A DNA stretch of 64,000 nt from Deltaproteobacteria bacterium (GCA_030591565.1 JAUVAU010000001.1:30572-94571), one strand, 5' to 3'. Positions 15,398-61,895 are shown, counted from the stretch's first letter. Notes: generated from the sequence alone by a model not told the origin. Made by a program: numbers and translations.

Positions 15398-15500
15398 CGC
15401 AGGAGTTGGCTGGAAAATTGTCTACTCGCAACGTCTGTCTACTTACTCAGCTTACTTAGCCTGACGAAGTCAATTGGGGAAAATGTCAGGCCTTGTCAGC
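15398..15500 (-). repeat. intergenic repeat family B, copy B6 (short form, inverted orientation)
   Basis: The reverse complement reads CCAATTGACTTCGTCAGGCTAAGTAAGCTGAGTAAGTAGACAGACGTTGCGAGTAGACAATTTTCCAGCC. This equals the left end and right end of the long copies at 45.8 kb and 61.6 kb, without their internal segment. Confidence 0.85.
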
Positions 15501-15503
15501 TGA

Positions 15504-16907
15504 TCAGGGGCTTTGCGGGGGGACTATCCCATAAAGCTCCATCTTTCGCTTCAGAGTCGAGTAAGAGATATTAAGGGACTGCGCCGCGTCCTTGTAGTGG
15601 AAGCGATACGCCTTTAACGTCCTTTCAATGAGCAGGTGCTCCATATCATCCAACGCCATGAGCGGCCCTTCCTCCGCAATGGGACTGGCGGCAGCAGCAG
15701 CGGTGGCGGACTGCCCGGCGGGCTCTTGGAGAAATAAAGAGGGCTTCAGCTCCGGACCCTTTTGCAGCAGCATGGCGCGTTCAATCAGGTTTCGGAGTTC
15801 GCGAACGTTACCGGGCCACTGATACTGCTGCAGCAACTCTATCTCTTCCGTGGTGATCCTGAATTCCGCCTGGTTTTTTCCAAGGAAATATTCGCACAGG
15901 GCAGGGATGTCGCCGGTGCGTTCCCGCAGGGGTGGAATGTGTATCCGGATCACGTTGAGGCGGTAGTAGAGGTCGCTGCGGAATCCCGTGCCCAGCTCTT
16001 TTTCCAATTCCAGGTTGGAGGCGGCGATGATCCGTGCGCGGATGGGGGTGAAAGAGGAGCTGCCGATGCGTTTGACCATGCGCGTCTCCAGGACCGATAG
16101 CAGCTTGGACTGCAAGTGGAGCGGCATCTCGCCGATCTCGTCCAAGAGGATCGTCCCTCCCTCGGCCATGCCGAAGAGCCCCTCCCGCGACGAGGTGGCG
16201 CCCGTGAACCCCCCCTTTTCATAGCCGAAAAGTTCGGCCTCGATCAAATTCTCCGGTAGCGCTGCGCAGTTGAAGGGAACGAAGGCTGAAGCATCGCTGT
16301 GGGCGGCGTAATGGATGCATTTGGCTGCGACGCTTTTCCCCGTCCCGGTCATCCCGCTGATCAGGACCGGAGCGTCGGTGGTCGCCGCCAGCTCGATGAG
16401 GCGGTGCACTTCTCCCAACCCATCACCGACCAGGACAGCCTCTACCCTGTCCTTTTCATGCTGATATTGTTGGACGCGCTCGATCCGCTCCAGCCCCGCC
16501 ACTCGCACGGCGCGGTCCACCGCTATCCGAAGTTCTTCCACGGAGATGGGTTTTGACAGAAAATCGAAAGCCCCTGCCTTGAGCGCATTGACGGCGTACT
16601 CGAACTTTGGATATCCAGTAATAACTATGATTTTGGCAAGCGGGTTGTGCTGAAGCAGCCGGTCGCAGAATTCATCTCCCAAACCATCCGGCAGGCGCTG
16701 ATCCAGCAGGATCACGTCCACACGGTGTTGGGCGCTTAGCTCCACCCCCTTTTCACCAGTGGCTGCGATATGGACCTGTCGAGCGGCCCCCTGAAAGATG
16801 TCCTTGATCGTCTCCGCCTGGACCTGGTCGTCATCGACGACGAGCAGAGCAAGCTGCTCCATGGGGTCGTTATCCGGTTTTGGCGACTGGGCAGTGAATT
16901 TCGACAA
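15504..16907 (-). CDS. sigma-54-dependent response regulator (NtrC family: REC, AAA+, Fis-type HTH)
   Basis: 467 aa. REC (LLVVDDDQ...VILLDQRLPD). Walker A GMTGTGKS. GAFTGA-type loop (EKGGFTGA). Also ELFGY and a C-terminal HTH. TTG start at 16907 preceded by GGAGGAGG. Confidence 0.9.
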   Translation of the reverse strand: MSKFTAQSPKPDNDPMEQLALLVVDDDQVQAETIKDIFQGAARQVHIAATGEKGVELSAQHRVDVILLDQRLPDGLGDEFCDRLLQHNPLAKIIVITGYPKFEYAVNALKAGAFDFLSKPISVEELRIAVDRAVRVAGLERIERVQQYQHEKDRVEAVLVGDGLGEVHRLIELAATTDAPVLISGMTGTGKSVAAKCIHYAAHSDASAFVPFNCAALPENLIEAELFGYEKGGFTGATSSREGLFGMAEGGTILLDEIGEMPLHLQSKLLSVLETRMVKRIGSSSFTPIRARIIAASNLELEKELGTGFRSDLYYRLNVIRIHIPPLRERTGDIPALCEYFLGKNQAEFRITTEEIELLQQYQWPGNVRELRNLIERAMLLQKGPELKPSLFLQEPAGQSATAAAAASPIAEEGPLMALDDMEHLLIERTLKAYRFHYKDAAQSLNISYSTLKRKMELYGIVPPQSP

Positions 16908-18687
16908 TGGTTCCTCCTCCTTTTACGCTGTCCACTGTGAGAAGACAGTTCATGGAGGCTAATAATTTTTTAGAAATAGTCAACCCGAGTCCGCTCGCAG
17001 CGGCCTTCGTCGTAAAGAATGGATCAAAGACCTGTCGCCGGGTCTCCTTGGACATCCCGCAGCCATTGTCGGTGATGCGGAGAGTTACTCCCTGGTTATG
17101 ATGCAACGCAACGAGAGTGACCGTGGGGTCGGGTCGGTCTTCCAGCGCATCCAGCGCATTGTTCAACAAATTGAGCATGACGTGCTGCATGGCGCGGGGG
17201 TCGAAATACGCTTGCTCCGCCTCCGGGTGCACGATGGTCTGGAAACGGATGCCGCGCAGCCCGGTGGATCTGAAAGCCATTTTTTCGAAGTGGCGACAAA
17301 ACTGCTCCAGCACCACGGACTCGCAAAATGGCTTCTCGTGTATATTGAAGTTTTTCAATTCACGCAGCAATACCTCAATTCGCTCGACAGCCCCCAGTGA
17401 GCGCCCGATGTAGCTGAGTAATTTGTCACGGGCGAGCTGGTCGAAATGGTCCTCGATGAGCGACAGGTTCATCTTCAGGATGTTCAACGGGTTGCCGATC
17501 TCGTGGCGCAACCCCAACGCGATGGTCCCCAGATTGTCACCCAAATTGACCGCTTCGGCAATGTTTTCGAGCCGGACGCGCTCAGTAACATCCGTACTGG
17601 ACACGGCGAAATTCACCATTTCTTTCGTTGAGTGCGGTCCCACCACCTTCACGGGATAAATATACACCTCTTTCGTGCTGCTGCTTCCGTCAGTTTTCTC
17701 CTGGGTCAGTCGACCGTTCCAGGGCTGCTCCGCTTGAATAGCGTTGCGTGCCGCGCGCCAGGACTCCGCCTTCGGGTCATCGCCGACCGAAAGGGAAAGA
17801 TCATCCTCGTCCGGATCATCGACGAACATAAAGGGATCCCGCTTGAAAGCGGGGTTCAGGTACTGTATCTGCCCGTGGCGGTCGGTAATCGCGAACTGGG
17901 TGGGTGACGCCTCCAACACCGAAGAGAGAAGGTCCTTTTGAAACTCCAACTCCATCTGCTCGGTAACGTCCTCCATCATCAGCATGATGCGCTGGCCGTC
18001 CGTTGTCGTGATGGGCAGGATGGTCAAAAAAACAAGGCGAGGTGCATCATCGTCGCGGGAAACGTACTCGGCCCGGAATCTCGGGGAAGCAACCCCCTTT
18101 TTCAACGTGTCTTGGAACAGGCGGAGCAGCGGGGTCTTCACGCTGTCGTCGATGATGATCGGCTCCCGCTGCGTGAAGCGCATCTGTTCGGACAGGCCCA
18201 TGCGGGTTGCCGCTTCATTGGCGAATTCCACCCGGCCATCTGCGTCGATCAATAAAACCGCGTAGGGCGCACTTTCCAGCAACAGGTGCATAATACCGTG
18301 TATTTCGACAAACTTACGTTGCTCCTGTTCCCGTTCCGTCACGTCGTTGAGGAGGATAAAAACTATGTTGTTGTCGACCCAGTGTACGGTGTAGCCAATG
18401 TGGTAGCCATTGCGGGCAATGGTGTCGGAGACCCGGTTCACGCCGCCGACAAACTGGGGCATGATGGAGACGACCATCTCCTCGCGAAGCTCCTTGAAGC
18501 GCACGGGGATGCCTACCTTCTCCAGCGTTTCCTCCGCCGCGGGATTGCGCAGCAGGAGCTTTTTCCGGGTTAGGTCGAGCATGATGCAACCGAGACTGAT
18601 GTGAACGAGGGAATATAAACATATGGGCATGCCGTCGATTTCAATATCCTCACACCATGCTTCTATATTACTTTTCCGGGTGCTCAT
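16870..18687 (-). CDS. PAS-domain sensor histidine kinase (NtrB-like partner of the downstream NtrC-type regulator)
   Basis: 605 aa. H-box LRHEIGNPLNILK. ATPase motifs NLLNNALDAL, DNGCGM, SGLGLTIS. Its end overlaps the regulator start by 38 nt. Confidence 0.85.
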   Translation of the reverse strand: MSTRKSNIEAWCEDIEIDGMPICLYSLVHISLGCIMLDLTRKKLLLRNPAAEETLEKVGIPVRFKELREEMVVSIMPQFVGGVNRVSDTIARNGYHIGYTVHWVDNNIVFILLNDVTEREQEQRKFVEIHGIMHLLLESAPYAVLLIDADGRVEFANEAATRMGLSEQMRFTQREPIIIDDSVKTPLLRLFQDTLKKGVASPRFRAEYVSRDDDAPRLVFLTILPITTTDGQRIMLMMEDVTEQMELEFQKDLLSSVLEASPTQFAITDRHGQIQYLNPAFKRDPFMFVDDPDEDDLSLSVGDDPKAESWRAARNAIQAEQPWNGRLTQEKTDGSSSTKEVYIYPVKVVGPHSTKEMVNFAVSSTDVTERVRLENIAEAVNLGDNLGTIALGLRHEIGNPLNILKMNLSLIEDHFDQLARDKLLSYIGRSLGAVERIEVLLRELKNFNIHEKPFCESVVLEQFCRHFEKMAFRSTGLRGIRFQTIVHPEAEQAYFDPRAMQHVMLNLLNNALDALEDRPDPTVTLVALHHNQGVTLRITDNGCGMSKETRRQVFDPFFTTKAAASGLGLTISKKLLASMNCLLTVDSVKGGGTIVEIHCPVAKTG

Positions 18688-18720
18688 GAGAAGCCTTTGC
18701 CCTTTCTATCGTTTCGCAGG

Positions 18721-20622: not shown

Positions 20623-20657
20623 CGTTTTCTCCCGTTTTAGGCTCCCGCAATTGGTAT

Positions 20658-20904: not shown

Positions 20905-20990
20905 ACCATTCTGCACCATCGCTTGCGTCGCGCCCTCCTTGGTCGTATTCGAGGATATTGCCCAGCGGTGATCGTGTGCCCCCGCACTCG
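20905..20990 (+). repeat. intergenic repeat family A, partial copy A3
   Basis: CTGCACCATCGCTTGCGTCGCGCCCTCCTTGGTCGTATTCGAGGATATTGCCCA is roughly 80% identical by eye to 26125-26180. Same orientation. Confidence 0.75.
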
Positions 20991-21011
20991 TAAACCAATA
21001 GCCCACCAAGG

Positions 21012-25954: not shown

Positions 25955-25989
25955 GAACCGGCCTCCTTGACCGGCTTCGCCCTTTCCCA

Positions 25990-26233
25990 CCGGGACTGCG
26001 TCGTCGAGACGGCTCACTCGCTTGCCGTATTATTCATACTGTCTGCTCTCGTTCGCCGCTCTGTGCTCCTTGCCCGACGATAAAGGTCAAAGCCGGTGAT
26101 GGTGATATGTGCTGGAAGAATTGCTCTGCGTCGTCGCTTGCGCCGCTCCCTCCTTGGTCGTATTCAAGGATACTGCCCATCGTCGGTCGCACCACGTCTC
26201 CTCGCGGAGCGAAAAAAGCAAAGGCCGGTGGTG
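25990..26233 (+). repeat. intergenic repeat family A, copy A2 (two roughly 110-bp related units in tandem)
   Basis: Both units begin CTGCGTCGTCG. They end (C)AAAGCCGGTGATGGTG and AAAGGCCGGTGGTG. Unit 1 matches 9788-9875. Unit 2 matches 9920-9956 and 20911-20970. Confidence 0.85.
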
Positions 26234-30077: not shown

Positions 30078-31223
30078 ATGGATGAAAAAACCAAACTCCT
30101 GCACGCCGGACCCGACAGGGACCCCCACACCGGGGCGTCGAGCATCCCCATACATCAGGTCTCCACCTACCATCAGGAAGACCCGGTGAAGCTGGGCAAA
30201 TATGACTATGGGCGCGGCGACAACCCCACCCGGTATGCACTGGAGGAATTCGTCGCCAACATGGAGGGCGGCTCCGCCGGCTTTGCCTTTGCCTCTGGTG
30301 TGGCGGCTATCGGGTCGGTGCTGCTCCTTTTTCAGCCAGGCGACCATATCATCGTCACCGAGGATGTGTATGGGGGCACCTACCGGCTGCTCACCAAACT
30401 TTTTGCCCGCTGGGGGCTGGAGGTCACCTTCGTGGATATGGCGGACCCCGACAAGGTAGCCGACGCCATAACCGAGAGCACCAAAGCGGTCTTCGTGGAG
30501 ACGCCGTCGAACCCGATCCTGAAGATCATTGACCTTGAGCGAATTGGTCGCCTCGCGAAGGATAAAGGGCTGGTCTCGATAATCGACAACACCTTCATGA
30601 CCCCCTATCTGCAAAAACCGCTGGCCTTCGGTTTCGACATCGTCATCCACAGCGCCACGAAATTCCTTGGCGGCCACAGCGACCTGATTGCCGGGGTGGT
30701 CGTCGTCGAAGATGAGAAACTGGCGCGCAAGCTGAAATCCATGCAGAACATGTTTGGTGCCATCCTCGGTCCCCAGGACTCCTGGCTGGTGCTTCGCGGC
30801 ATCAAGACCCTCTCGGCGAGGATGGAGGCGCAGCAAAAGAGCGCCGCCGAGCTGGCCGATTGGCTTTCCCTCCAGCCCCAGATAGAGAAGGTCTATTACC
30901 CCACGCTCAAGGGGCACCCGGGCAGGGAGATACATCTTCGACAATCATCCGGCGGCGGGGCAGTGGTCTCTTTCGAGCTGGTCGATGGGGAAGCAGCCCA
31001 AGGTTTTTTAAAGGCCGTCAAACTGCCGCTGGTCGCGGTGAGCCTGGGCGGCGTGGAGTCGATCCTCTCCTACCCGGCCACTATGTCACATGCAGCCATG
31101 ACGCGTGAAGAGCGGCTGGCCCGTGGCATAACCGATGGGCTAGTGCGCCTTTCGGTGGGGCTGGAGGGCGTGGACGACCTGAGAGAAGACCTGCGACAGG
31201 CGCTCTGTTTGACGGACTCCTGA
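30078..31223 (+). CDS. Cys/Met-metabolism PLP enzyme paralog (cystathionine beta-lyase/gamma-synthase family)
   Basis: 381 aa. YGRGDNPTR, DNTFMTP, HSATKFLGGHSD. A paralog of the preceding gene. Confidence 0.8.
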   Translation: MDEKTKLLHAGPDRDPHTGASSIPIHQVSTYHQEDPVKLGKYDYGRGDNPTRYALEEFVANMEGGSAGFAFASGVAAIGSVLLLFQPGDHIIVTEDVYGGTYRLLTKLFARWGLEVTFVDMADPDKVADAITESTKAVFVETPSNPILKIIDLERIGRLAKDKGLVSIIDNTFMTPYLQKPLAFGFDIVIHSATKFLGGHSDLIAGVVVVEDEKLARKLKSMQNMFGAILGPQDSWLVLRGIKTLSARMEAQQKSAAELADWLSLQPQIEKVYYPTLKGHPGREIHLRQSSGGGAVVSFELVDGEAAQGFLKAVKLPLVAVSLGGVESILSYPATMSHAAMTREERLARGITDGLVRLSVGLEGVDDLREDLRQALCLTDS

Positions 31224-31292
31224 CTTGAAAATATAGTTTCTGCCAGCTTCGCGTGGTCCGGTTTACAGGGTTTCAAAACCACCACCGAGACG
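31207..31292 (+). repeat. repeat C, copy 1: duplicate of the promoter and 5' half of the riboswitch candidate at 32428-32518
   Basis: TTGACG (31209-31214), 17 nt, TATAGT (31232-31237). Then TTGAAAATATAGTTTCTGCCAGCTTCG is identical over 27 nt to 32446-32472, with looser similarity to about 31292. The 3' P1 partner GAAGCTGGCA was not seen nearby. Confidence 0.8.
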
Positions 31293-32251: not shown

Positions 32252-32429
32252 GTGAAGCTCCTCTCCATTATCAAAGGCAAAAAGTTGTTGTGACAATGTG
32301 CAACACCGCCCGGAAAGGCGACCGGTCAATAATTATAACAATTATGGTAACAATACAAAGGAAAAGCTGCCTGTTGCCAAATAAAGAGCAGACAATACAA
32401 TGCACCTCTCCCTTCTCACCTTCCTATGC

Positions 32430-32458
32430 TTGACGAACATTCAATTTGAAAATATAGT
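32430..32458 (+). promoter_or_regulatory. sigma-70-type promoter driving the riboswitch candidate
   Basis: TTGACG (32430-32435), 17 nt, TATAGT (32453-32458). The predicted transcription start falls at the 5' strand of the P1 helix. Confidence 0.6.
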
Positions 32459-32459
32459 T

Positions 32460-32572
32460 TCTGCCAGCTTCGAGTGGCCCGGTCTAACGGTTTGAAAAAA
32501 CCCATGACCACCCACCGATGGGCTCTGGGGGAAACTCTTCGGCCTCCCGTGTTTGGAAAGAAGCTGGCATGA
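32460..32572 (+). ncRNA. Moco/Tuco (molybdenum/tungsten cofactor) riboswitch candidate
   Basis: A 10-bp closing helix: TGCCAGCTTC (32462-32471) pairs with GAAGCTGGCA (32560-32569). Internal hairpins GGTTT-GAAA-AAACC and CCCAT...ATGGG. Blocks CTTCGAG, GCCTCCCG and GGAAAG resemble what I recall as conserved Moco-motif blocks (CUCCGAG, CCUCCC, GGAAAGG). A tungstate/molybdate-type binding protein lies downstream. Confidence 0.55.
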
Positions 32573-32678
32573 CGCAGGAACCCCTGCGCGCCGCAATCGG
32601 CACGAGCTTTTTGCCTGCGATGGCCGTTGCCTTCTTTCCTTGGTGTTATTTATCATTGCCACTGGCAGAGGAGGAACC

Positions 32679-36106: not shown

Positions 36107-36107
36107 A

Positions 36108-36360: not shown

Positions 36361-36432
36361 AGGGGATGGGACGAGCCATCCCCTTTACCGCTCCAGCCCT
36401 CGAAGAGGGAGAGCGGAACGCCTTTAAATACC

Positions 36433-43897: not shown

Positions 43898-45802
43898 TTG
43901 AACATGGGCAAAATAATAGGAATAGATCTTGGCACCACCAATAGCTGTGTTGCGGTGCTGGAAGGCGGCGAACCCGTCGTCATCCCCAACGCCGAGGGCA
44001 GCCGCACCACACCCTCGATGGTCGCCATAACCGAAGATGGTGAAAGACTGGTGGGCCAGCCCGCCAAGCGTCAGGCGGTGACCAACCCCAGCAACACCGT
44101 TTTTGCAATCAAGCGATTGATCGGAAGGAAGAACAAGGACCCCGAAGTTGAAAAAGACAAGGGGATGGTCTCCTACAAGATCGTCGAAGGTTCCGCCGGA
44201 GACGCCTGGGTGGAGGTACGCGACAAGAAGTACAGCCCCGCCGAGGTTTCCGCCTGGATTCTTCAGAAGATGAAGCAGACGGCGGAGGATTATCTGGGCA
44301 GCGAAGTGACCGAAGCTGTCATTACCGTACCTGCGTATTTCAATGACAGCCAGCGCCAGGCCACCAAGGACGCCGGACGCATCGCCGGGCTGGACGTCAA
44401 GCGCATCATCAACGAGCCCACCGCAGCGGCGCTCTCCTATGGCCTCGACAAAAAGGCGGAGCTCAAGATCGCGGTGTTCGACCTTGGCGGCGGTACCTTT
44501 GATATTTCCGTATTGGAAATAGCCGAGGGTGTCTTTGAGGTCAAGTCCACCAATGGCGACACCTTCCTGGGTGGCGAAGACTTTGACAAGAAGATCATCG
44601 ACTACCTCGCCGACGAGTTTAAAAAGGAGCAGGGCATCGATCTTCGCGGCGACAAGATGGCGCTCCAGCGGCTCAAAGAAGGTGCCGAGAAGGCCAAGAT
44701 GGAGCTTAGCTCCACGATGGAGACCAACGTCAACCTGCCCTTCATCACCGCCGACCAGTCGGGCCCCAAGCACCTCAATATCCGCCTGACCCGCGCCAAG
44801 TTCGAGCAGCTCTGCGAGGATCTCCTTGAACGGCTGGTGGGACCCTGCAAAAAAGCGTTGGCCGATTCGGGTTTCAGCCAGAGCCAGATCGACGAAGTGA
44901 TCTTGGTGGGTGGCATGACCCGCATGCCCAAGGTGCAGGAGAAGGTCGAGGCGATCTTCGGCAAAAAACCCAACAAGAGTGTCAACCCCGACGAAGTGGT
45001 CGCGGTGGGCGCAGCGATTCAGGGCGGGGTGCTGACCGGCGACGTCAAGGATGTGCTCCTTCTCGACGTCAACCCCCTCTCCCTGGGCATCGAGACGCTG
45101 GGCGGCGTATTCACCCGCCTGATCGAGAAGAATACGACTATCCCGTGCCGCAAGACCCAGGTTTTTTCCACCGCCGAGGACAACCAGGCGGCGGTGTCGA
45201 TCCACGTGCTCCAGGGCGAGCGCGACATGGCGAGCTATAACAAGACGATCGGGCGCTTTGAGCTTGTGGGCATACCCCCGGCGCCCCGCGGCCTGCCCCA
45301 GATCGAGGTTACCTTTGACATAGACACCAACGGCATCCTGCATGTCTCCGCCAAGGATCTCGGCACAGGCAAGGAGCAGTCGATCCAGATCAAGGCAAGC
45401 TCCGGCCTCAGCGAAGAAGAGATTGCGCAGATGGTCAAGGACGCTGAACTTCATGCCTCCGAGGATAAGGAGAATCGCCAGAGGGTTGAGGAGCGCAACA
45501 AGCTCGATGGCCTGATCTACTCCACCGAGAAGAGCATGGGCGAGTTTGGCGACAAGCTCGATGCGGAAACCCGCTCCTCCATCGAAGCGGCCCTGGCCGA
45601 GGGCAAGAGTGCGATGGAAGGCGAGTCGGTCGATGCGATCAAGGCGGCGTATGAAAACCTCACCACCGTCTCCCACAAACTGGCCGAAGAGATGTACAAG
45701 AAGGCCCAGGACGAAGCCGGAACCACGGGCGATGACGCAGGCGGGGCGACTGGTGGGGACGACGATTCGGTGGTGGATGCCGATTTTGAAGAGGTCAAAT
45801 AA
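43898..45802 (+). CDS. dnaK: molecular chaperone DnaK (Hsp70)
   Basis: 634 aa. Motifs: [36 protein letters not shown]. Confidence 0.97.
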
Positions 45803-45805
45803 TCG

Positions 45806-46012
45806 ATCGCCGACAAAGCCTGTCTTTTCTCCGATTGACTTCGTCAGGCTAAGAAATGATCCTCGAAATACGACAAGTATTCCTCCGGTCGTTTCTTATC
45901 ACCTTCCTTGTTCTCGAAGAAAATCCAGCCCTTGTCAGCAATCGGTCAGGCTGGGTAAGTAGAGTAAGTAGATAGACATACAGTTGCGAGACAACTTCCT
46001 TTTTGTCTGCCT
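45806..46012 (+). repeat. intergenic repeat family B, copy B1
   Basis: CTCCGATTGACTTCGTCAGGCTAAGAAATGATCCTCGAAATACGACAAGTATTCCTCCGGTC...GGTCAGGCTGGGTAAGTAGAGTAAGTAGATAGAC. Begins 3 nt after the dnaK stop and precedes the terminator. Confidence 0.85.
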
Positions 46013-46025
46013 TTGTCAACAGCCA

Positions 46026-46050
46026 GGGGGCGCATTTGCGCCCCCTTTTT
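46026..46050 (+). terminator. intrinsic terminator of the dnaK transcript
   Basis: GGGGGCGC-ATTT-GCGCCCCC followed by TTTTT. Confidence 0.85.
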
Positions 46051-48211: not shown

Positions 48212-50766
48212 GTCAGCGGAGCCACACGGTGACCCTTGAAAATGGCATGACGCTCGTCTACGTGCGCAATGAGGCCGCCCCCGTGCTGGCCCTTGACGTG
48301 TGGATCAGGGCGGGCAGCGCCGATGAGCGCGAGGACGAGGCGGGGCTTGCCCATGTGGTCGAGCATATGATGTTCAAGGGGACCGGGCAGCGCGGCCCGG
48401 GAGTCATTGCGGGTGAGGTGGAGAATATGGGGGGGGAGATAAACGCCTTCACAAGCTTCGACCATACAGTCTACACCCTCTGCGTGCCGGGCAGGTATGG
48501 GGCGCAGGCGTTCGACATCGTCCATGACGCCCTGACCGGTTCACTCTTCGACTCCGAAGAGCTTGAGCGGGAGAAGCTGGTTATACTGGAAGAGATCAAG
48601 CGGGGCCGCGACCATCCCCAGCAGTATCTCTCCCGGATGCTCTTTTCCACCGCCTACCAGCGCCACCCCTACAAAAACCCGGTAATCGGCAGCGCGGAGT
48701 TGGTCTCCTCTTTCACCCGCGAGAACCTCAAACGTTTCGTTTCGCGCTGGTACCGTTCCTCCAACATGACCCTTGTGGCCGTGGGAGAGCTTCCCATTGG
48801 AAAAGTAAAAAAGATGGCCGAGGCCACTTTCGGCAAAATGGATAGAAGCCCCGTTCCACGCAGGACAAAGAGGGCAGCAGAGGGTGAGCCGGACAGCTTT
48901 CGCTGCTCGATCGAGGGGCGCGACATCGCCGAAATCTACTTTGACATCGCTTTTCCCGGCCCCGGCGCGGACCACCGCGATGTGGTGCAGCTCGACCTGA
49001 TGGCGGCGGTGCTCGGCAATGGTGAGGCCTCAAGGCTCGAGCACAGGATAAAGCTGGACCTGAACCTTGTACACGCCATCGGGGCGGGGGTTTATCTGCC
49101 CACCGACCCCGGCGTGATCAATATCGGAGGCGCCGCCGACCCGGCCAAGTTCGAGGAGGCCTACCGGGAAATATGCTCTGAGCTTTACCGCATAGCCCAT
49201 GAACCGGTCTCGGCCACTGAGCTGAAGCGCGCCAAGGACACGGTGGAGACGGAGTTCATATACCAGCGCGAGACCTCCCAGGCCCAGGCGCAAAAGCTCG
49301 GCTACTGCCAGCTGGTTTTAGGTGACGCCGATTACGAGGCCCTCTATCTGGAGCGTCTTCACGAGGTCACCCCGGATGAGCTGATGGGGGTGGCCCAAAA
49401 ATATATCGCCCCCCGCCGTGGCGTCGTCACCTACATTCACCCCAGGGGTGAAAAGCCGCCCCTCTCGGTTTCCGCTGCCAAAGCTGCTATGCAGAAGGCG
49501 GAGAAGAAGTGGTCGGCCAAGAAGAAAACCGTTAAAAAGCCGCCGGTGATGTCGCGCTATGTGCTGGATAACGGCGCACGCGTGCTGGTGCGGCGACAAA
49601 ACGCGGTGCCCATTGTTTCAGTGAGGGCAGCCATGCTCGGTGGCTCCCGCGTGGAGCAGGAGGGGAAACAGGGTCTCTTTCACTTGCTCAGCGCGGCGGT
49701 GACGAGGGGAACGGGGTCGAGATCGGTCTTCGATATCGCCCACGATTCCGACCGCATCGGCGGACACATAGAGGGCTTTTCAGGGCGCAACTCCTTTGGG
49801 GTCAAGTCCGAGTTCCTCTCCAAACACCTTGAAAAAGGGGTGGAGCTTCTCTGCGACACTTTGACAACGCCCACTTTTCCCGACGAAGAGGTGGAAAAAT
49901 CGCGGATCGAAACCCTCTCGGCATTAAAACGCAGGGATGACAACCCGGCGGCCAAGGCTTTCCGGGCCTTTGAGCGTGCCCTGTTCAGTCCCCATCCCTA
50001 CGGGATTGATCCGCTGGGAACCGTGGAGGGGGTCCAGAATCTTTCCCCCGACGATCTGCGCGGGGCTTATGGCAATTACGCCAGCGCCGAGGGGCTCGCC
50101 ATTGCTGTTTCCGGCGATGTTGAGCCTGAAGCGGTGGTTGAACTATTTAATGAAAAGCTCAAACTGGCGAGAACCGGCAGGGCGACGCTTGAAGTAAAGT
50201 TGCCCAAGGCGAATCCTGCGTACAAAGAGGTGCTAAAGGTCGAGTCGCCCCATGAGCAGGCGCATGTGGTGTTGGGCTTTCTCGGGGCTACGATCTTCGA
50301 TGAGGGTCGCCTTGCGCTAAAGGTCGCCAACTCGATCCTCAATGGACAGGGGGGCAGGCTATTCAGGTCTTTGCGTGACGAGCAGGGGCTTGCCTACGCG
50401 GTGATGTCCACTTCGATGGAGGGGATCGACCCGGGGTTCATCGCGGGCTATATCGCGACCTCCCATGAGAACGCCGAGAAGGCGCGTCTTGGGCTTTTGG
50501 AGCAGTTCATGGGGTTGTGGGCGACCAGGGCGTCAAAGTTGGAAGTGGACAGCGCCAAGCGCAAGCTGGCGGGGGGTTATGAGATGAACCTGCAGGAAAA
50601 TGATTTTCATGCCTCCCAGATGGCGCTGGACGAGATATATGGGCTTGGCTACCGTGACTACCTCTCCCACGCCGGGCGCATACTCAAAGTGACCCCTGAC
50701 GAGGTCTGGGCGGCTGCGAGCCGCTACTTTGGCGAGGACAACTGGGTGGCGGTGGTGTCAGGCTAA
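48208..50766 (+). CDS. M16-family zinc peptidase, double-length (two M16 units)
   Basis: 852 aa. Inverted zinc motif AHVVEHMMFKGT (HxxEH). The second half repeats the M16 fold without the motif. ATGA overlap with the upstream lipoprotein gene. Confidence 0.8.
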   Translation: MSQRSHTVTLENGMTLVYVRNEAAPVLALDVWIRAGSADEREDEAGLAHVVEHMMFKGTGQRGPGVIAGEVENMGGEINAFTSFDHTVYTLCVPGRYGAQAFDIVHDALTGSLFDSEELEREKLVILEEIKRGRDHPQQYLSRMLFSTAYQRHPYKNPVIGSAELVSSFTRENLKRFVSRWYRSSNMTLVAVGELPIGKVKKMAEATFGKMDRSPVPRRTKRAAEGEPDSFRCSIEGRDIAEIYFDIAFPGPGADHRDVVQLDLMAAVLGNGEASRLEHRIKLDLNLVHAIGAGVYLPTDPGVINIGGAADPAKFEEAYREICSELYRIAHEPVSATELKRAKDTVETEFIYQRETSQAQAQKLGYCQLVLGDADYEALYLERLHEVTPDELMGVAQKYIAPRRGVVTYIHPRGEKPPLSVSAAKAAMQKAEKKWSAKKKTVKKPPVMSRYVLDNGARVLVRRQNAVPIVSVRAAMLGGSRVEQEGKQGLFHLLSAAVTRGTGSRSVFDIAHDSDRIGGHIEGFSGRNSFGVKSEFLSKHLEKGVELLCDTLTTPTFPDEEVEKSRIETLSALKRRDDNPAAKAFRAFERALFSPHPYGIDPLGTVEGVQNLSPDDLRGAYGNYASAEGLAIAVSGDVEPEAVVELFNEKLKLARTGRATLEVKLPKANPAYKEVLKVESPHEQAHVVLGFLGATIFDEGRLALKVANSILNGQGGRLFRSLRDEQGLAYAVMSTSMEGIDPGFIAGYIATSHENAEKARLGLLEQFMGLWATRASKLEVDSAKRKLAGGYEMNLQENDFHASQMALDEIYGLGYRDYLSHAGRILKVTPDEVWAAASRYFGEDNWVAVVSG

Positions 50767-50769
50767 TAA

Positions 50770-50985
50770 ACTCTGCCTTTTATCCGATTGACGGCGTCAG
50801 CCTGAAAAAATGATCCTCGAAATACGCTGAGTATTCCTCCGGTCATTTTTTATATCCTTCCTTGTTGACTCGACCCCTCTCGGGGCCTCGCCTAAAGGTG
50901 CGCTAATGCGCATCCAAGTTTTCAGGACAGAAAACTTGCCTCGAATAAAATTCAAAGTTTACAGCAATCTGTCAGGCTGAGATGG
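50770..50985 (+). repeat. intergenic repeat family B, copy B2
   Basis: By eye roughly 85-90% identical to 61620-61835 over about 170 nt (GATCCTCGAAATACGCTGAGTATTCCTCCGGTCATTTTTTATATCCTTCCTTG...AAGGTGCGCTAATGCGCATCCAAGTTTT...AAAACTTGCCTCGAATAAAATTC). Starts directly after the peptidase stop. Confidence 0.88.
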
Positions 50986-51003
50986 TCTGGCGGGAAAGTG
51001 AAG

Positions 51004-51040
51004 GAAAAAAAGGCAGAACCCATTGGGTTCTGCCTTTTTA
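51004..51040. terminator. bidirectional intrinsic terminator (M16 peptidase on plus / atpE on minus)
   Basis: AAAAAAA-AGGCAGAACCC-ATT-GGGTTCTGCCT-TTTT. 11-bp stem with an A-run and a T-run on either side. Confidence 0.85.
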
Positions 51041-55732: not shown

Positions 55733-57412
55733 ATGGATATAATAAGGATAACGCGTACTTACCGCAGCATGCAGAGGGTGCGGGAGATAGTGACGATCCT
55801 GTCGCGCCACGGCTTTTCGCGGATGCTCCAGGCCACCGGGCTGGGACGCTTCATGCCTGTGTCCCAGAGGATGAAGCGGGCCGAGAACGTCAACGAGACC
55901 GTCACCGCGCCCGAGCAGCTGCGCTTTGCGCTCGACGAGCTTGGCCCCACCTTCATCAAGCTGGGGCAGATGCTGGCCTCGCGGCCCGATCTGGTGCCGG
56001 AGCCCTACGTCGAGGAGCTCAGAAAGCTCCAGGACGAGGTCAGCCCCTTCCCCTTTGAAGAGGTGTGCCTCGTGGTGGAGGAGCAGACCGGGCTGCCCAT
56101 GGACGAATGCTTCAAATCGGTGGATGAACAGCCGATGGCCGCCGCCTCCATCGCCCAGGTGCACCGCGCCGTCCTGATCGACGGCACCCCGGTTGTGCTC
56201 AAGGTGAGGCGACCGGGCATCAAGAATATCATCAATCGCGACCTCTCCGTGCTCCAGCTCCTCATAACCGCCGCCGAGCGCTACATGCCTGAGAGTCGCG
56301 AGCTGGACCTGCCCACCATCCTCGACGAGTTCTCCCGTACCATTCGCAGGGAGCTTGATTTTTATCTCGAAGCCTCCCACACCGAGCGAATCAAGCGAAA
56401 CTTTGGGGACGATGAGCAGGTGGTGATTCCAGCCATCCACTGGGAAATGACAGGGGAAAGCCTGGTGGTGATGGATGAGCTTGAGGGCTTTGCAGCCGAT
56501 GATATCGAGGGGATAGACGCTGCCGGTATCGACCGTGTCCAGGTCGCCAAAATCGCTGCGCGCTGCTTTATGAAGCAGGTATTTGAAGATGGGGTTTTCC
56601 ACGCCGACCTGCACGCCGGTAATGTCCGGGTGACGGCTGAGGGCAAGCTGGGGCTGCTGGACTTTGGGGCTGTGGGCTTTCTCTCCGAGGAGATTCAAGA
56701 GAGCCTGGGCACCTTCTTGATGGCGCTCTTGAGCCGCGACTATACGGCGCTGGTGGATGAGTTCATGCACATCGGCACCTTCGAGCGCGCGGTGGATATG
56801 CGGCGGTTCGAGCGCGATCTTCGCGAGCTGATCGAGCCTTATTTCGGCAGGCCGTTGGGGGAGCTGCGCTTTGGTGAGATAATGAAGGAGTGCGTGGCGA
56901 TTGCGCTTCGCCACCATATCCGTGTGCCCGCCGACATGGTTCTGCTGGCCCGCTCAACGATCTCCATTGAGGGGATCGTGCGCCAGCTGGACCCCGAGCT
57001 GGGGATAATCGAGGAGGCGGAGCCCTTCGCCAAAGAGCTCATAGCCAAGCGGCTGGACCCACGCAGGCAGTGGCGCGCCTTTAGCCGCGCGGGGCGTGAC
57101 TACAAACATTTTCTCACCCGGCTGCCCACGCAGCTGGGTCGCATATTCCAGCAGCTTCTCGACTCGCGTCTCTCAATCGATTTCGTTCACCGCGGCTACG
57201 AAAAGGCGCTCGATGAGATGGACCGCTCCTCCAACCGCATCAGCGCAAGCCTGATAATATCGGCGTTGATCGTCGGTAGCGCGCTCATCGTATTGTCGGG
57301 GAAGGGGCCGATGCTCTGGGATTTTCCGGTGTTCGGGATTGTGGGCTTTATCCTCGCGGCCGTTATGGGGTTTGGCCTTGCCATACAGATATTGCGTTCG
57401 GGGAAGTTCTAG
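55733..57412 (+). CDS. ubiB: ABC1/UbiB-family atypical kinase
   Basis: 559 aa. LGPTFIKLGQMLASRPDL, AAASIAQVHRA, HADLHAGN, DFG. C-terminal TM helices. Confidence 0.85.
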   Translation: MDIIRITRTYRSMQRVREIVTILSRHGFSRMLQATGLGRFMPVSQRMKRAENVNETVTAPEQLRFALDELGPTFIKLGQMLASRPDLVPEPYVEELRKLQDEVSPFPFEEVCLVVEEQTGLPMDECFKSVDEQPMAAASIAQVHRAVLIDGTPVVLKVRRPGIKNIINRDLSVLQLLITAAERYMPESRELDLPTILDEFSRTIRRELDFYLEASHTERIKRNFGDDEQVVIPAIHWEMTGESLVVMDELEGFAADDIEGIDAAGIDRVQVAKIAARCFMKQVFEDGVFHADLHAGNVRVTAEGKLGLLDFGAVGFLSEEIQESLGTFLMALLSRDYTALVDEFMHIGTFERAVDMRRFERDLRELIEPYFGRPLGELRFGEIMKECVAIALRHHIRVPADMVLLARSTISIEGIVRQLDPELGIIEEAEPFAKELIAKRLDPRRQWRAFSRAGRDYKHFLTRLPTQLGRIFQQLLDSRLSIDFVHRGYEKALDEMDRSSNRISASLIISALIVGSALIVLSGKGPMLWDFPVFGIVGFILAAVMGFGLAIQILRSGKF

Positions 57413-57424
57413 GAGCTTCGCCGA

Positions 57425-57520
57425 AAAACCCCGGATATCCTCCGATTGACGTTGTCAGGGGCGAAAAATGATCCTCGAAATACCTATCAGTATGCCTCGA
57501 ATGATCTTCGGGGTTTCCAG
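57425..57520 (+). repeat. intergenic repeat family B, copy B4 (left module only)
   Basis: CCTCCGATTGACGTTGTCAGGGGCGAAAAATGATCCTCGAAATACCTATCAGTATGCCTCGAATGATC. Begins about 12 nt after the ubiB stop. Confidence 0.75.
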
Positions 57521-57661
57521 TTTATCGTCGGCTTAGTTGGAGGTTTGTCCGGCATCGGCTAGCATCTCCAGTTTGGCCCAGTTTAGTGTTATCCCCCCGC
57601 TTCGGGAGAGTTTTTCAACAGCCTCCTAGTGGGGGAACTTCAATAGAAACTGGCTGTTCCG

Positions 57662-59053
57662 TTATTTTCCTATGCAGAACTCGGAAAAAATCCTCTCCAA
57701 CACCTCATCCACCGCCCCATCTCCCAATAGCTCACCCAGCTTCCCTCGGGCCAGATGCAGTTCATTGGCGGCAGCCTCGACGTAGGGGGTCTTTTCAAGG
57801 GTGTCGATGGCGCAGACCACCGAGTTGTGGGCGGCCTCCACCGTTTCCCGGTGGCGAAGCCTTGTCAGCGCCTCTTCGCACTTCGGTCCTGAGCCTGACC
57901 ATGCCCGCTCCCGTAGCGCCAAAAGCAGCTCGTCCACCCCTTCGCCGGTTTTTGCGCAGAGCTGCATCGGCACGCCAAAGTTGGCTTTAATGCGGGAGAG
58001 TGATTTTAGCCCCTTGTCCACTTTGTTGATGACGGCGAGATGGGCGTTGCCCTCAATTGCCTTTGTTGCCTCTGCAAGCTCCTCGTCGGAGAGCTTGATG
58101 CTGCCATCGAAGACGAGCAGGACGAGGTCGGCGGACTTTGCCGCTTGGCGGGCGCGGTTGACGCCTTCGACCTCGATCTCGCAGCCTGATACTCTAAGCC
58201 CCGCCGTGTCGATGATGTGTACCGGCGCGCCAAGGGCGTTGATTCGTACTTCAATCGTATCCCGGGTGGTCCCCGCCACCGGGCTGACGATTGCGCGATC
58301 ATCGTCGGCCATGCGGTTTAGCAGGCTCGACTTGCCCACGTTGGGTGCGCCCACTATCGCGATGCGGTACCCTTCGCGCGCGGTGCGGCCCCAAGCGTAA
58401 GTATCCAGCATTTCACGCATTTTAGTCGACATTGACATGAGCGAGGATTTCAGCTCGGCCCAGTCGGGCAGCCCCACGTCCTCTTCTTCGTCAAAGTCTA
58501 GATAGGATTCGAGGTGCATCAGCACCCTCGCCAATTCATCCTGCCAGTCGCGGGTCAGCGTGGAGAGTCGGCCCTTGAGCAACGCTTCGTGGACCTTGAG
58601 GGATTCCCCGGTTTCGGCCCCGATGATGTCGGCGACGGCTTCGGCCTGAACAAGATCGATGCGGCCACGCAGGAATGCGCGCAGGGTGAACTCACCGGGA
58701 CCGGCCAGCCGTATACCCTCGGCCATTACGACTTCCATGATGGCGTTGGCTGCGGCGCGACCGCCGTGGCAGTGGATCTCCAGGACATCTTCGCGTGTGT
58801 AGGAGTTGGGCCCCGGCATCCAGAGGGCCAGGACTTCATCGATGGTGGACCCCTTGGGGTCGTTGGGATTGGAAACGTGGGCCAGCGCGGCGTAGCGGGG
58901 TTTTAGTTCAAGGGGTTCGCCGCCGGTCGTTCTCAGAAGTTTCCCCGCGACCTCACCGGCTCGGCCACCGCTTAGACGCACGATGGCTATGCCGCCGGGT
59001 CCGGCGGCGGTGGCGATGGCGCATATGGTATCGTCCAGGCTGTTGAGGTTCAT
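57662..59053 (-). CDS. mnmE: tRNA modification GTPase MnmE
   Basis: 463 aa. DTICAIATAAGPGGIAIVRLSG, GAPNVGKSSLLN, DTAGLR. C-terminal CIGK. Confidence 0.92.
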   Translation of the reverse strand: MNLNSLDDTICAIATAAGPGGIAIVRLSGGRAGEVAGKLLRTTGGEPLELKPRYAALAHVSNPNDPKGSTIDEVLALWMPGPNSYTREDVLEIHCHGGRAAANAIMEVVMAEGIRLAGPGEFTLRAFLRGRIDLVQAEAVADIIGAETGESLKVHEALLKGRLSTLTRDWQDELARVLMHLESYLDFDEEEDVGLPDWAELKSSLMSMSTKMREMLDTYAWGRTAREGYRIAIVGAPNVGKSSLLNRMADDDRAIVSPVAGTTRDTIEVRINALGAPVHIIDTAGLRVSGCEIEVEGVNRARQAAKSADLVLLVFDGSIKLSDEELAEATKAIEGNAHLAVINKVDKGLKSLSRIKANFGVPMQLCAKTGEGVDELLLALRERAWSGSGPKCEEALTRLRHRETVEAAHNSVVCAIDTLEKTPYVEAAANELHLARGKLGELLGDGAVDEVLERIFSEFCIGK

Positions 59054-59108
59054 CTCTGTTCCCCTGTAAAAGCAGCTTGGAAGCCGCTTTTCTTTGCCGG
59101 AGTTCCCT

Positions 59109-60734
59109 TTAGCTTTGTATCGCGGGTGCGGCGGGCTTTGGGGTGCTCTTTTTACGCATCATCAACCACTGCTGGAAGATACTCAGGACGTTGTTCCAGA
59201 GCCAGTAGATGACCAGTCCCGAGGGAAAGTCCATGAACATCCAGGTGAACATGACCGGCATGCCGTACATCATGAACTTCATCTGGCCTTCGCTGGCGCC
59301 GGAAGCCGGGGTCAGTTTTTGCTGGATGAACATCGAGGCGCCCATGACAATGGGAGTCACGTAGTAGGGGTCTTTGGCCGCGAGGTCCTGAATCCAGAAC
59401 ATGAAGGGTGCGTGGCGGATATCGATGGAGTACATGAGGCCGCGGTAGAGCGCGATGAATACGGGTATCTGGACCAGGATCGGCAGGCAGCCGCCCATGG
59501 GGTTGACCTTGTGGGTCTTCCACAGGTGCATCATCTCTTTGTTGAGCTTCTCTTTGTTCTCGCCATACTTGTCTTTTAGTATCTGGACCTTGGGAGACAG
59601 CTCCTTCATCCGCGCCATCGACTTGTAGCTCTTGTTGCTCAGCGGCCAGAAGAGCATCTTTATCAGGGTGGTGAGGATGATGATGGCTACGCCGTAGTTG
59701 CCGACCATGGTGAAGAGCAGGTGAAGAAAGTCCATCAGCGGCCCGGAGATCGGCTGGAACCAGCCGTAATCCACTGCACGGTCCAGGTTCAAGCCAACCG
59801 GCACGATTGCATTTTTGGCCTTGGGGCCGACGAAAACACCGGTGGTGAAGCTGTGGACGCCGCCGGGGGGCAAGTCGAACATCTGGCCTGTCAGGGTCAC
59901 TTTGACTGAGGCGTTGCCGCCGATCTCCGGTCCCACGGAGATGTCGAAGTCGCCCGGGTTTCTGGGCACTAGGATGCTCATGAAGTACTTCTGGGTGCAG
60001 CCGGCCCAGGAGATGGCGCCAGCGTCTTTCAGGCCATCCTCCACCGCGTCGTCAACCGCCACATCTTCAAGCTCGTTGTCTTTGAAGTAGACGGGACCCT
60101 GGAAGACATATTTGGACTCTTTGCCGGCGAAATCCTGGCTGACATAGAGGGCGGCGCGGTCGCGCAAGGGGGCTTGTCCACCGTTGGTTATGCTAACCGT
60201 CAGGTCCAGGTCGTAGCGACCGGGGATAAGCGTGTAGCGCTTTTCAACGGTGAGGCCTGTAGGGGTTGTAACAGAATAGACGATGTGCTCGGGGGTGGTC
60301 TCAACTATGGAGTAGAGGGCATCGGGGTTGAGGTCGCCCGAGACCAGCCCAAGGGAGCCGATGGAGTCGATCCCCTTTTGCAACATCACGAGCGGCTTGC
60401 CCTCGGGGCCTGCAACGTCGGTGTATTTGGAGAGAACAGCCCCTTCGACCCGTGCTCCCCAGTTGGTGAGGTTGAAGGTAGCGACATCGTTGGAAAGCTG
60501 TGATTTTTCCACGCCGCTGGCGGGTTGGGCTGGTGTGATTATGTTGTCGATAGTCGCCGCTGCGTCGGGGGCTACCTGCTGAGCCTGTACCGGTTGACCC
60601 TGCACCGGCTGCCCCTGTACCGCCTGGGATTGCGCCTGGGTAGCCACTTGCCTTGGCTGCACAAAATACGTCTGCCAAGCCATGAGGATCATAAAACTTA
60701 TTGCAAGGGCGAGAAGCGTACGCTTTCCATCCAT
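59109..60734 (-). CDS. yidC: membrane protein insertase YidC
   Basis: 541 aa. N-terminal TM, large periplasmic domain, C-terminal GCLPILVQIPVFIALY...P. Confidence 0.9.
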   Translation of the reverse strand: MDGKRTLLALAISFMILMAWQTYFVQPRQVATQAQSQAVQGQPVQGQPVQAQQVAPDAAATIDNIITPAQPASGVEKSQLSNDVATFNLTNWGARVEGAVLSKYTDVAGPEGKPLVMLQKGIDSIGSLGLVSGDLNPDALYSIVETTPEHIVYSVTTPTGLTVEKRYTLIPGRYDLDLTVSITNGGQAPLRDRAALYVSQDFAGKESKYVFQGPVYFKDNELEDVAVDDAVEDGLKDAGAISWAGCTQKYFMSILVPRNPGDFDISVGPEIGGNASVKVTLTGQMFDLPPGGVHSFTTGVFVGPKAKNAIVPVGLNLDRAVDYGWFQPISGPLMDFLHLLFTMVGNYGVAIIILTTLIKMLFWPLSNKSYKSMARMKELSPKVQILKDKYGENKEKLNKEMMHLWKTHKVNPMGGCLPILVQIPVFIALYRGLMYSIDIRHAPFMFWIQDLAAKDPYYVTPIVMGASMFIQQKLTPASGASEGQMKFMMYGMPVMFTWMFMDFPSGLVIYWLWNNVLSIFQQWLMMRKKSTPKPAAPAIQS

Positions 60735-60741
60735 TATATGT

Positions 60742-60981
60742 TCATCCTTTAAAATCGAAGGGAGAGCGATCAGGAACGGGATCGAGGCCCCCAGGGTGAT
60801 GCGGGTGGCATTTCAAAATTCGTTTGGCGGTGAGGGCGCTGCCTGCGAAAAACCCGTGTCGCATGTACGCTTCGTGGGCGTAGGCGCTGCAGGTGGGCTC
60901 GAATCTGCATGCCGGGGGCAGCAGCGGCGAAATCCACTTGCGGTACTGGGTGATCAGCCATGCGGCTATCAGGCGTGCCAT
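60742..60981 (-). CDS. yidD: membrane protein insertion efficiency factor YidD
   Basis: [31 protein letters not shown]...[18 protein letters not shown]. Confidence 0.9.
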
Positions 60982-61325
60982 CTGTTCAATGCCTTAAGTA
61001 TTTCGTTGGTTACTTCTTCCAGCGTGAGTTTATCGGCTCCCCGCTTGGCGACAACCACAAGGTCCACCGGAGGGTCGATTGTGTGGCGGTTGGCCCTGAA
61101 GGCCTCTCGCACCAAACGCTTGATCCGGTTGCGATCAGGTGCCCTTTTAGCCGTCTTTTTAGAAACAACAAGGCCCAAGCGGCTTGGCGTGCCCTGGGCC
61201 TCGATAGCTATAAAACGAAAATGGTCAGTGTGAAACGAGCTGCCTTCGGTGAAGACCCTGTCGAACTCACACTTTTTCCGTATGCGGCACGACGGTGGAA
61301 ACGTCAGCCGCCGAGTCGAGTTCAA
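60969..61325 (-). CDS. rnpA: ribonuclease P protein component
   Basis: 118 aa. Basic. [29 protein letters not shown] (RNR motif). Lies between rpmH and yidD. Confidence 0.88.
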
Positions 61326-61478
61326 CTACTTCTTGGGTATCACGACGGCAAGCACTTTGCGTCCGCGACGACGGCGACGGGCAAGGACATTGCGACCATT
61401 TTTGGTTGCCATGCGGGCACGAAAGCCGTGGACACGCTTACGACGGATACGACTGGGGTTGTAGGTTCTCTGCTGCAT
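61326..61478 (-). CDS. rpmH: 50S ribosomal protein L34
   Basis: Start trimmed to ATG 61478: [45 protein letters not shown].... GGAG lies 9 nt upstream. The 97-aa track ORF is an upstream extension. Confidence 0.9.
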
Positions 61479-61619
61479 AGCTTTCTTCTCCGAAAATTGG
61501 CCTCGCCGCGTCATGTTTCCAGCTACGGCGGCGGGCAAAGCGATTCCATATTTGTAAAGAAACGGGGAGATTAGACCCCTTTCCCCCCGACTGTCAAGGG
61601 TTTTACAGACCGCTGACAA

Positions 61620-61895
61620 ACTCTGCCTTTTCTCCGATTTACTTCGTCAGGCTAAAAAATGATCCTCGAAATACGCCGAGTATTCCTCCGGTCATTTTTT
61701 ATATCCTTCCTTATGGACTCGGCCCCCTCTCTGGGGCCTCACCTAAAGGTGCGCTAATGCGCATCCAAGTTTTTGATTTTGAAAACTTGCCTCGAATAAA
61801 ATTCAGTGCTTGTCAACGATCAGCCAGGCTGGGTAAGTAGATAGGCAGACAATTACCAGTAGCCGATTTTCCAGCCAGCTTCCCGTTGTCTACCT
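61620..61895 (+). repeat. intergenic repeat family B, copy B3 (longest, all modules)
   Basis: Contains the left module (CTCTGCCTTTTCTCCGATTTACTTCGTCAGGCTAAAAAATGATCCTCGAAATAC...). Also the hairpin modules shared with 50770-50985, and the right module (CCAGGCTGGGTAAGTAGATAGGCAGACAATTACCAGTAGCCGATTTTCCAGCC) shared with 45.95 kb and 15.4 kb. Confidence 0.88.

Follow-up and report, generated by a model that had tools for sequence, protein, structure and literature searches.

The stretch of DNA analyzed here, hereafter the window, comprises 64,000 nucleotides (nt) of one strand from a Deltaproteobacteria bacterium (GCA_030591565.1, JAUVAU010000001.1:30572-94571) and holds six copies of an intergenic, multi-hairpin repeat, family B. 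An earlier interpretation made without database searches, the sequence-only reading, had named the neighboring genes as those of a sigma-54 regulator, PhoR, DnaK, an M16 peptidase, and UbiB, and Pfam agrees with these assignments, giving a sigma-54 activator and a PAS/HisKA/HATPase histidine kinase for the first two. The same reading suggested that the repeat could be a mobile element resembling inverted-repeat transposable elements of miniature size (MITEs) or REP sequences, an RNA stability or processing module of 3' untranslated regions (UTRs), or a source of small RNAs (sRNAs). Analysis of the termini, flanks, and distribution of the copies indicates that family B is, in all likelihood, a non-autonomous DNA transposon, i.e., a MITE, belonging to a new family.

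All six copies were found at frequencies far above chance. Searched with up to three mismatches, the core CCGATTGACNNCGTCAGG matched the six sites and one additional site in the window, a three-mismatch chance match; shuffled sequences gave a mean of 0.64 matches, and none of 100 shuffles reached seven. The 17-mer AATGATCCTCGAAATAC occurred exactly in four window copies as compared to 0.06 expected, and the right module of the repeat occurred three times in the window as compared to 0.04 expected. An nhmmer profile built from full-length copies recovered the six copies and zero additional ones in the 64-kb window. The same families were yielded by a repeat finder (D1, D2, D4, D10, D16, I1, I2, I5, and I7). 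The six-copy family is thus borne out by the core-motif shuffles and the profile, and the modules and three small hairpins that had been quoted for it were found as described. Four of the copies lie at or near the positions first given for them, while the extents of two required correction. The copy placed at 36108-36360 shares homology with the family only over 36096-36176, the remainder (36177-36360) matching no other copy. The copy placed at 57425-57520 is present, but its full length is 57413-57625. The core strings were not in the repeat catalogues of Geobacter and Pelobacter genomes (supplements of PMC3543383 and PMC2996986) and had no match in the full-text literature searched.

A metagenome scan using a 22-base gapped pattern returned six contigs, five of which carry clear copies: four are complete (approximately 230 nt) and one, L040, is cut at the contig end. 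Four of the five are from sample Ga0334722 and one is from another sample. Near-identical metagenome copies occupy unrelated gene contexts, and the flanking genes are likewise unrelated between the window and metagenome copies. Over eight copies from the window and the metagenomes, the larger of the two units described below, unit A, has a mean column identity of 83%. The window organism has a GC content of 58%, and its closest UbiB relatives in a database of 5.8 billion proteins are at most ~63% identical, the nearest named matches being metagenome-assembled genomes of Deferrisomatales or "Deltaproteobacteria". The remaining contig, the AT-rich L042 (Ga0075121_1086570, 830-946), has only CGTCAGGCT and AAAATGATCCTCGAAATAC...GTAT in common with the family, with 22 extra nt between them (nhmmer E = 1.4e-4); it may represent a remote version of the conserved core from a different lineage, or else a fortuitous match to the pattern.

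The clean metagenome copies reveal an anatomy that is obscured in the partly decayed window copies. Based on termini defined from seven full-length copies, the element consists of two abutted fold-back units, A and B, separated by a 1-nt spacer, and full-length copies span 213-304 nt. Unit A, of approximately 145 nt, starts with CAGATTGCTGACAAAC and ends with GTTTGTC(A)GCAATCTG; it contains the left module of the repeat and a central hairpin, AAAAATGATCC...GGTCATTTTT, bordered by A- and T-runs. Unit B, of approximately 70-85 nt, starts with CAGGCTG... and ends with CTTTGTCAACAGCCTG. The start of unit B reads CAGGCTGTTGACAAG in the metagenome copies and CAGGCTGGGTAAGTAGA in the window, the latter being the right module of the sequence-only reading. 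The three small hairpins belong to unit C, a 75-nt insert within unit A that is present in the copies at 50759-50988 and 61606-61909; the remnant at 36096-36176 has its first 20 nt. Units A and B each possess their own pair of terminal inverted repeats (TIRs), better matched than the outer pair. The outer TIRs, CAGATTGCTGACAAAC and the reverse complement of CTTTGTCAACAGCCTG, share 12 of their 16 bases, and CAG...CTG invariably forms the outer ends. The composite of A and B moves as one piece. An nhmmer search aligned unit A with its own reverse complement (E = 3.6e-7), and the fold of units A and B is a pair of long hairpins, with z-scores of -5 to -10 with respect to shuffles. No conserved open reading frame (ORF) was found in the copies: the sole ATG-initiated ORF common to all of them (MILEI...) varies from 22 to 58 amino acids and changes frame. 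A small protein translated from the invariant ATGATCC of this ORF was considered and rejected as neither frame nor length is conserved and there is no clear Shine-Dalgarno sequence.

The window copies differ in their state of preservation: one is internally deleted and two are truncated. The first, at 15385-15502 on the minus strand, is the internally deleted one. In it, the left ~45 nt of unit A, comprising the left TIR and the CCAATTGACTTCGTCAGGCT module, are joined at the octamer GTCAGGCT straight to unit B, the deletion running between two GTCAGGCT octamers. This copy fills a convergent gap between the stop codons of a histidine kinase gene (15370-15372) and the sigma-54 activator gene (15504-15506). 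The copy at 36096-36176 (plus strand, as are the remaining four) is a truncated and rearranged remnant that retains the left TIR CAGATCGCTGAAAAAC, the left module, and the first hairpin of unit C; the TGA that ends the histidine-kinase ORF (36104-36106) sits within its TIR. The DNA 3' of this remnant (36177-36400) is unique and GC-rich; it includes a 30-nt palindrome (36358-36387) as well as a 10-bp stem, GAACCTTACG...CGTAAGGTTC, and has no other match in the window and none in Rfam.

The full-length copy at 45803-46026 begins immediately 3' of the dnaK stop codon (45800-45802) and is made up of unit A (45803-45945), a spacer (45946), and unit B (45947-46026). An intrinsic terminator consisting of the hairpin GGGGGCGCATTTGCGCCCCC and a T-run (46025-46046, plus strand) abuts its right end. 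This hairpin is host sequence, although the 22-nt stem call begins 2 nt inside the right end of the element (46025-46026). As the dnaK terminator abuts the right TIR, the element was inserted at the 5' base of the terminator. The copy at 50759-50988 has a partly deleted left TIR, within which lies the TAA ending the M16 peptidase ORF (50764-50766); it contains unit C at 50867-50939, its unit B is truncated after CAGGCTGAG, and a terminator follows downstream at 51007-51039. The most diverged copy, at 57413-57625, is full length, with unit A at 57413-57558 and unit B at 57560-57625. The sixth copy, at 61606-61909, is also full length, with unit C and its three small hairpins at 61716-61790 and unit B at 61825-61909; it is located in the divergent region between rpmH (minus strand) and a radical-SAM gene (plus strand). 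The minus-strand cluster adjoining it, mnmE-yidC-yidD-rnpA-rpmH (57662-61478), has no dnaA beside rpmH, its place being taken by the repeat and the radical-SAM gene.

In five copies, direct repeats of 4, 8, 26, 26, and 29 bp adjoin the CAG...CTG termini exactly, as expected of target-site duplications (TSDs). At the metagenome loci L039, L041, and L043, the duplicated segment is a complete GC-rich stem-loop that is different at each locus. The two copies of the segment are 100% identical over 29-30 nt at L039 and match at 26 of 28 nt at L041 and 24 of 26 nt at L043; the alignment scores are 21-30 as compared to a maximum of 9 for a cross-locus null. Because the flanking hairpins vary by locus, they derive from the target rather than from the element. 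The right-hand hairpin copy retains its T-run, reading ...GCGGCCCTTTTTT at L039 and ...CCCCGGCCTTCTTTTT at L043. At L040, from sample Ga0334722, a GC hairpin adjoins the left end, the right side having been lost at the contig end. An independent ENA assembly is base-for-base identical to the L039 locus over 404 nt; thus, this arrangement is not an assembly artefact. At L043 (3031-3313), the duplicated hairpin was formerly a bidirectional terminator between convergent genes for a porin and an aldehyde:ferredoxin oxidoreductase. The left hairpin copy there retains an A-run, and so terminates the minus-strand gene, and the right copy retains a T-run; consequently, both convergent transcripts cross the whole element before reaching a hairpin with a U-tract.

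The other two duplications are in the window. CTAG is found on either side of the copy downstream of ubiB (57409-57412 and 57626-57629), the left CTAG including the native ubiB stop codon, and an exact 8-bp direct repeat, GGGTTTTA, flanks the copy near rpmH (61598-61605 and 61910-61917). Four of the five duplications are therefore palindromic, namely CTAG and the three hairpins of 26-29 nt; the 8-bp repeat is not. The UbiB C-terminus, ...GKF-stop, is shared by the window protein (residues SGKF) and three distant relatives, and the gap between ubiB and the convergent gene downstream is 66 nt in one relative as compared to 250 nt in the window. The shared protein end and the shorter gap indicate that the element inserted right after the native stop codon, in the CTAG that now flanks it on both sides. 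The element was not present 3' of ubiB in relatives of 58-60% amino acid identity, which are too remote for these empty sites to serve as proof. A TA duplication of the IS630/Tc1 type, prompted by the CTAG at ubiB, was rejected as the other copies lack a flanking TA.

We also evaluated the position of the copies with respect to gene ends. The report that five of the six begin just after a stop codon was borne out, and the abutment is closer than had been described. For dnaK, ubiB, and the sigma-54 activator gene, 0-1 nt separate the stop codon from the left end of the element 3' of it, whereas the stop codons of the histidine kinase and M16 peptidase genes fall within the left terminal repeat. 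The left repeat itself provides stops, TGA in two frames if intact and TAA in the rearranged peptidase copy, so that ORFs interrupted near their ends terminate within three codons. For elements dispersed through intergenic DNA, such adjacency departs strongly from a random arrangement. The metagenome copies, by comparison, have 55-124 nt between the upstream stop codon and their left end, which follows the duplicated hairpin; exact abutment is thus confined to the window genome. Co-orientation with the upstream genes, to which the sequence-only reading had drawn attention, was indeed seen but is mostly uninformative: at four of the five sites the neighbors are convergent, and co-orientation with one of them is then automatic. 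Tandem gene pairs occur only at the dnaK copy and L039, both of which are co-oriented, and L038 is apparently anti-oriented to its upstream ORF. Finally, a terminator scan upheld the proposal that intrinsic terminators follow the dnaK and peptidase copies, which would hence be transcribed as 3' UTR.

The assignment of family B to the MITEs is based on its small size, its multiple copies (six in 64 kb and five in metagenomes), its TIRs and TSDs, and its lack of conserved coding capacity. The MITE-like half of the first proposal is thus upheld by the TIRs, the TSDs of five copies, the decayed copies, and the unrelated gene contexts; the REP-like half fails, as the element is too long and has TIRs and TSDs. 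By this mechanism, a transposase encoded elsewhere would recognize the outer CAG...CTG inverted repeats and insert the element in trans with duplication of the target. The usual targets would be palindromes, either CTAG or a whole GC-rich terminator hairpin. In the latter case, the entire hairpin would be duplicated, with one copy on each side of the element. Since four of the five duplications are palindromic and their length is that of the palindrome rather than of a fixed stagger, we infer attack at the base of a cruciform: if both strand transfers took place where an extruded hairpin or cruciform emerges from the duplex, an ordinary short stagger would yield a duplication of 26-29 bp, and an ordinary duplex target would yield one of 4-8 bp. 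A preference for palindromes and terminators, together with selection against other insertions in a gene-dense genome, would direct the copies to gene 3' ends and convergent gaps. Once inserted, the element would be co-transcribed as a long, highly structured 3' UTR, and any effects on mRNA fate would be by-products. The internal A/B junction, in which termini are 1 nt apart, would be the expected product of insertion beside an existing end.

Several observations weigh against this mechanism. A transposase or full-length insertion sequence (IS) with these termini was not found, the source genome having been searchable only within the window, and the window contains no long TIR-bounded element. 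A scan of a genome collection with the 17-mer AATGATCCTCGAAATAC gave only chance matches in unrelated genomes; similarly, a distant-mode search of a plasmid collection gave no match, nor did viral contigs, in which the TIR pattern of unit B met only phage-protein coding sequences. The dnaK copy and L038, both full length, have no recognizable TSD, and the length of the TSDs in the other copies varies widely. Hairpin duplication was seen only among the copies of one metagenome, and none of the window copies is preceded by a hairpin at its left end. An empty orthologous site in a close relative was not found, the relatives examined being too distant or non-syntenic; for L039 and L043, relatives sought through the enoyl-CoA hydratase (77-82% identity) and the porin, respectively, were non-syntenic, on contigs that were too short, or absent. 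Moreover, the near-exact abutment of left ends and stop codons in five window copies is only partly accounted for. Lastly, the left arm of the central hairpin, AAATGATCCTCGAAATAC (e.g., 45855-45872), is invariant in all eight aligned copies while its pairing partner varies. Such unequal conservation of the two arms hints at a function that depends on sequence, for example subterminal binding of the transposase or of another protein.

A more specific form of the mechanism, which we consider tentative and rather improbable as a whole, is that the transposase recognizes DNA structure instead of sequence and attacks the bases of terminator cruciforms. Each insertion would then duplicate a complete terminator, generating a "hairpin - structured spacer - terminator" cassette, and in the window genome would land exactly at stop codons. 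If this were true, family B would be the first MITE shown to have palindrome-duplicating insertion like that of IS1630. It would also represent a general route to long, structured 3' UTRs and to tandem or bidirectional terminators, with co-opted effects on mRNA stability or interference between convergent transcripts being possible.

The evidence was also considered in terms of RNA function. In one alternative, family B is a 3'-UTR module kept by selection, its double hairpin stabilizing the mRNA of the preceding gene against 3' exonucleases or serving as a processing site for RNase III or RNase E. Consistent with this, five of the six window copies begin 0-1 nt past a stop codon or include it, the dnaK and peptidase copies precede an intrinsic terminator and so would be transcribed, the fold is far more stable than that of shuffles, and ERIC and Correia MITEs affect transcript fate (PMC10969869). 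Furthermore, seven of 36 predicted pairs in unit A have two-sided compensatory changes as compared to 2.4 ± 1.1 in shuffles; none of 500 shuffles reached seven, and slid controls gave at most four. This excess indicates that the fold-back is maintained, but compensatory changes are also expected of a DNA fold-back with paired TIRs. The target duplications, in turn, prove insertion events. The antisense RNA has the more stable fold in six of seven copies, by 10-23 kcal/mol, which argues against a palindrome adapted to the sense transcript. Convergent genes border four of the five "co-oriented" sites, the L038 copy is apparently anti-oriented, the copy near rpmH is in a divergent promoter region, and some copies are truncated or internally deleted. 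Rfam 15 has no match at any copy at the gathering threshold and none at E ≤ 1 over 35900-62100. Selection for an RNA module is therefore improbable as the primary explanation, although a side effect of this kind is possible. We regard it as less probable still that the element carries its own promoter, in which TTGAC and AATGAT boxes would drive an sRNA through the right half to the downstream hairpin. TTGAC and AAATGAT are among the most conserved segments, TTGACT-16-AATGAT in L041 scores 9/12, additional promoter-like hexamers occur at the unit C boundary in the copies at 50759-50988 and 61606-61909, and MITE-derived sRNAs are known in Coxiella (PMC10969869). On the other hand, the two boxes are separated by 14 to 17 nt depending on the copy, with 14-15 nt in every window copy, a promoter scan called a TTGAC/AATGAT promoter in no window copy, promoter-like matches are no commoner than in shuffles, and the lack of an Rfam match applies here as well. 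The hexamers at the boundary of units C and A are oriented rightward and read TTGATT-18-TAAAAT and AGGACA-16-TAAAAT (61773-61802, 50924-50951). Those in the copy near rpmH are upstream of the radical-SAM gene (ORF from 61896), where the element might contribute a promoter.

Mobilization as single-stranded DNA by a tyrosine (HUH) transposase, either in the manner of REP/REPIN sequences via RAYT or as a palindrome-associated element of the IS200/IS605 type, would agree with the strong secondary structure, the fold-back units, the REP-like location between convergent genes, and the presence of five of the six window copies on the same strand. This is the leading, G-rich strand, but the bias is not significant; moreover, GC skew is positive across the entire window with no visible strand or origin switch, so the 5:1 ratio is uninterpretable. 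HUH-mobilized elements lack target duplications and TIRs, whereas TSDs of 4-29 bp abut clear TIRs in family B, which accordingly does not resemble REP/REPIN or IS200/IS605 elements in this respect. At 210-300 nt, the element is also far longer than a REP, and no conserved tetra- or pentanucleotide occurs 5' of its left end. A RAYT gene was likewise not encountered, the search being limited to the window part of the source genome. We thus consider this route highly improbable, even next to the promoter-driven sRNA.

Interpreting family B as a MITE turns a multi-hairpin 3'-UTR element into mobile DNA with precise ends, which averts its mis-annotation as a regulatory RNA, and accounts for the several ORFs that end inside the repeat. 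The non-routine feature of the family is the duplication of entire, locus-specific terminator hairpins. If the partner transposase were found, the family would offer a tractable system for studying structure-directed target choice and the remodeling of the 3' ends of transcription units by transposons. Unit A is highly similar across hosts whose proteins are at most ~63% identical, and the family can accordingly serve to trace horizontal spread in a lineage about which little is known.

The window contains a second, unrelated repeat family. Positions 9758-9956 are 84% identical to 25962-26159 over 199 nt (region 25962-26189), and positions 20910-20967 are 86% identical to 26125-26182 (region 20910-20974). 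Copies lie upstream of plus-strand ORFs, one encoding a 333-amino-acid protein of no known identity (9906) and another a radical-SAM/BATS protein (21138), and resemble leaders or promoters that paralogous operons have in common. In addition, a 76-nt direct repeat (D5) occurs at 31203-31278 and 32424-32499 with 78% identity. The latter copy overlaps the 5' part of an Rfam Moco riboswitch (32456-32580), and the former may be a second, degenerate riboswitch uncalled by Rfam or a shared promoter.

Among known systems, the REP/BIME/REPIN sequences resemble family B as extragenic palindromes enriched at gene 3' ends and between convergent genes, but they are 20-40 nt long, have neither TIRs nor TSDs, and depend on RAYT tyrosine transposases for their movement. 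Family B is modular, with units A and B and an optional unit C, and in this it is similar to the BOX/RUP/SPRITE repeats of Streptococcus pneumoniae. BOX modules are not known to have a TIR/TSD signature. The pneumococcal repeats are modular and mosaic with nested insertions, and some of their modules are terminator-like (PMC10969869, PMC3049150). Their sequences and hosts are unrelated to those of family B. The best functional comparators are the Correia elements of Neisseria and the ERIC/IRU elements of Enterobacteria, which are likewise short, non-coding, TIR-bounded, intergenic fold-back repeats. The Correia element duplicates TA. Both types are co-transcribed with adjacent genes, form long RNA hairpins, and can affect how mRNA is processed, with RNase III involved for Correia and RNase E, at gene 3' ends, for ERIC (PMC10969869). 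They differ from family B in being of unrelated sequence, and there are no reports that either type consists of two units or that its insertion duplicates a whole terminator hairpin.

The closest parallels to the insertion behavior are in the IS30 family. IS30 of E. coli uses near-palindromic hot spots and its own inverted repeats (IRs) as targets, forming IR-IR junctions (PMC9333248). The internal junction of family B, ...GCAATCTG-N-CAGGCTG..., is similar in that termini lie 1 nt apart; it is the reverse complement of the junction that a circle would form between the right and left ends, and insertion beside an existing end would be its probable origin. IS30 differs in being autonomous and in generating a fixed, 2-bp duplication. 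IS1630, an IS30-family element of Mycoplasma fermentans, inserts into inverted repeats and duplicates them over a variable 16-26 bp, according to PMC3317919, which cites Calcutt et al. 1999 under a title to the same effect. The likeness is in the long, variable target duplications, which in family B are whole hairpins of 26-29 bp and a 4-bp palindrome. IS1630 is an autonomous element of 1.2-1.4 kb with a transposase gene, 27-bp IRs, and an AT-rich mollicute host, whereas family B is non-coding, 210-300 nt long, and bounded by 16-nt TIRs in a host of 58% GC. The resemblance to IS1630 and IS30 is one of analogy and not of membership. Within that analogy, IS1630 appears to be the closest behavioral precedent for family B and, among the systems compared, the sole one documented to duplicate whole hairpins.

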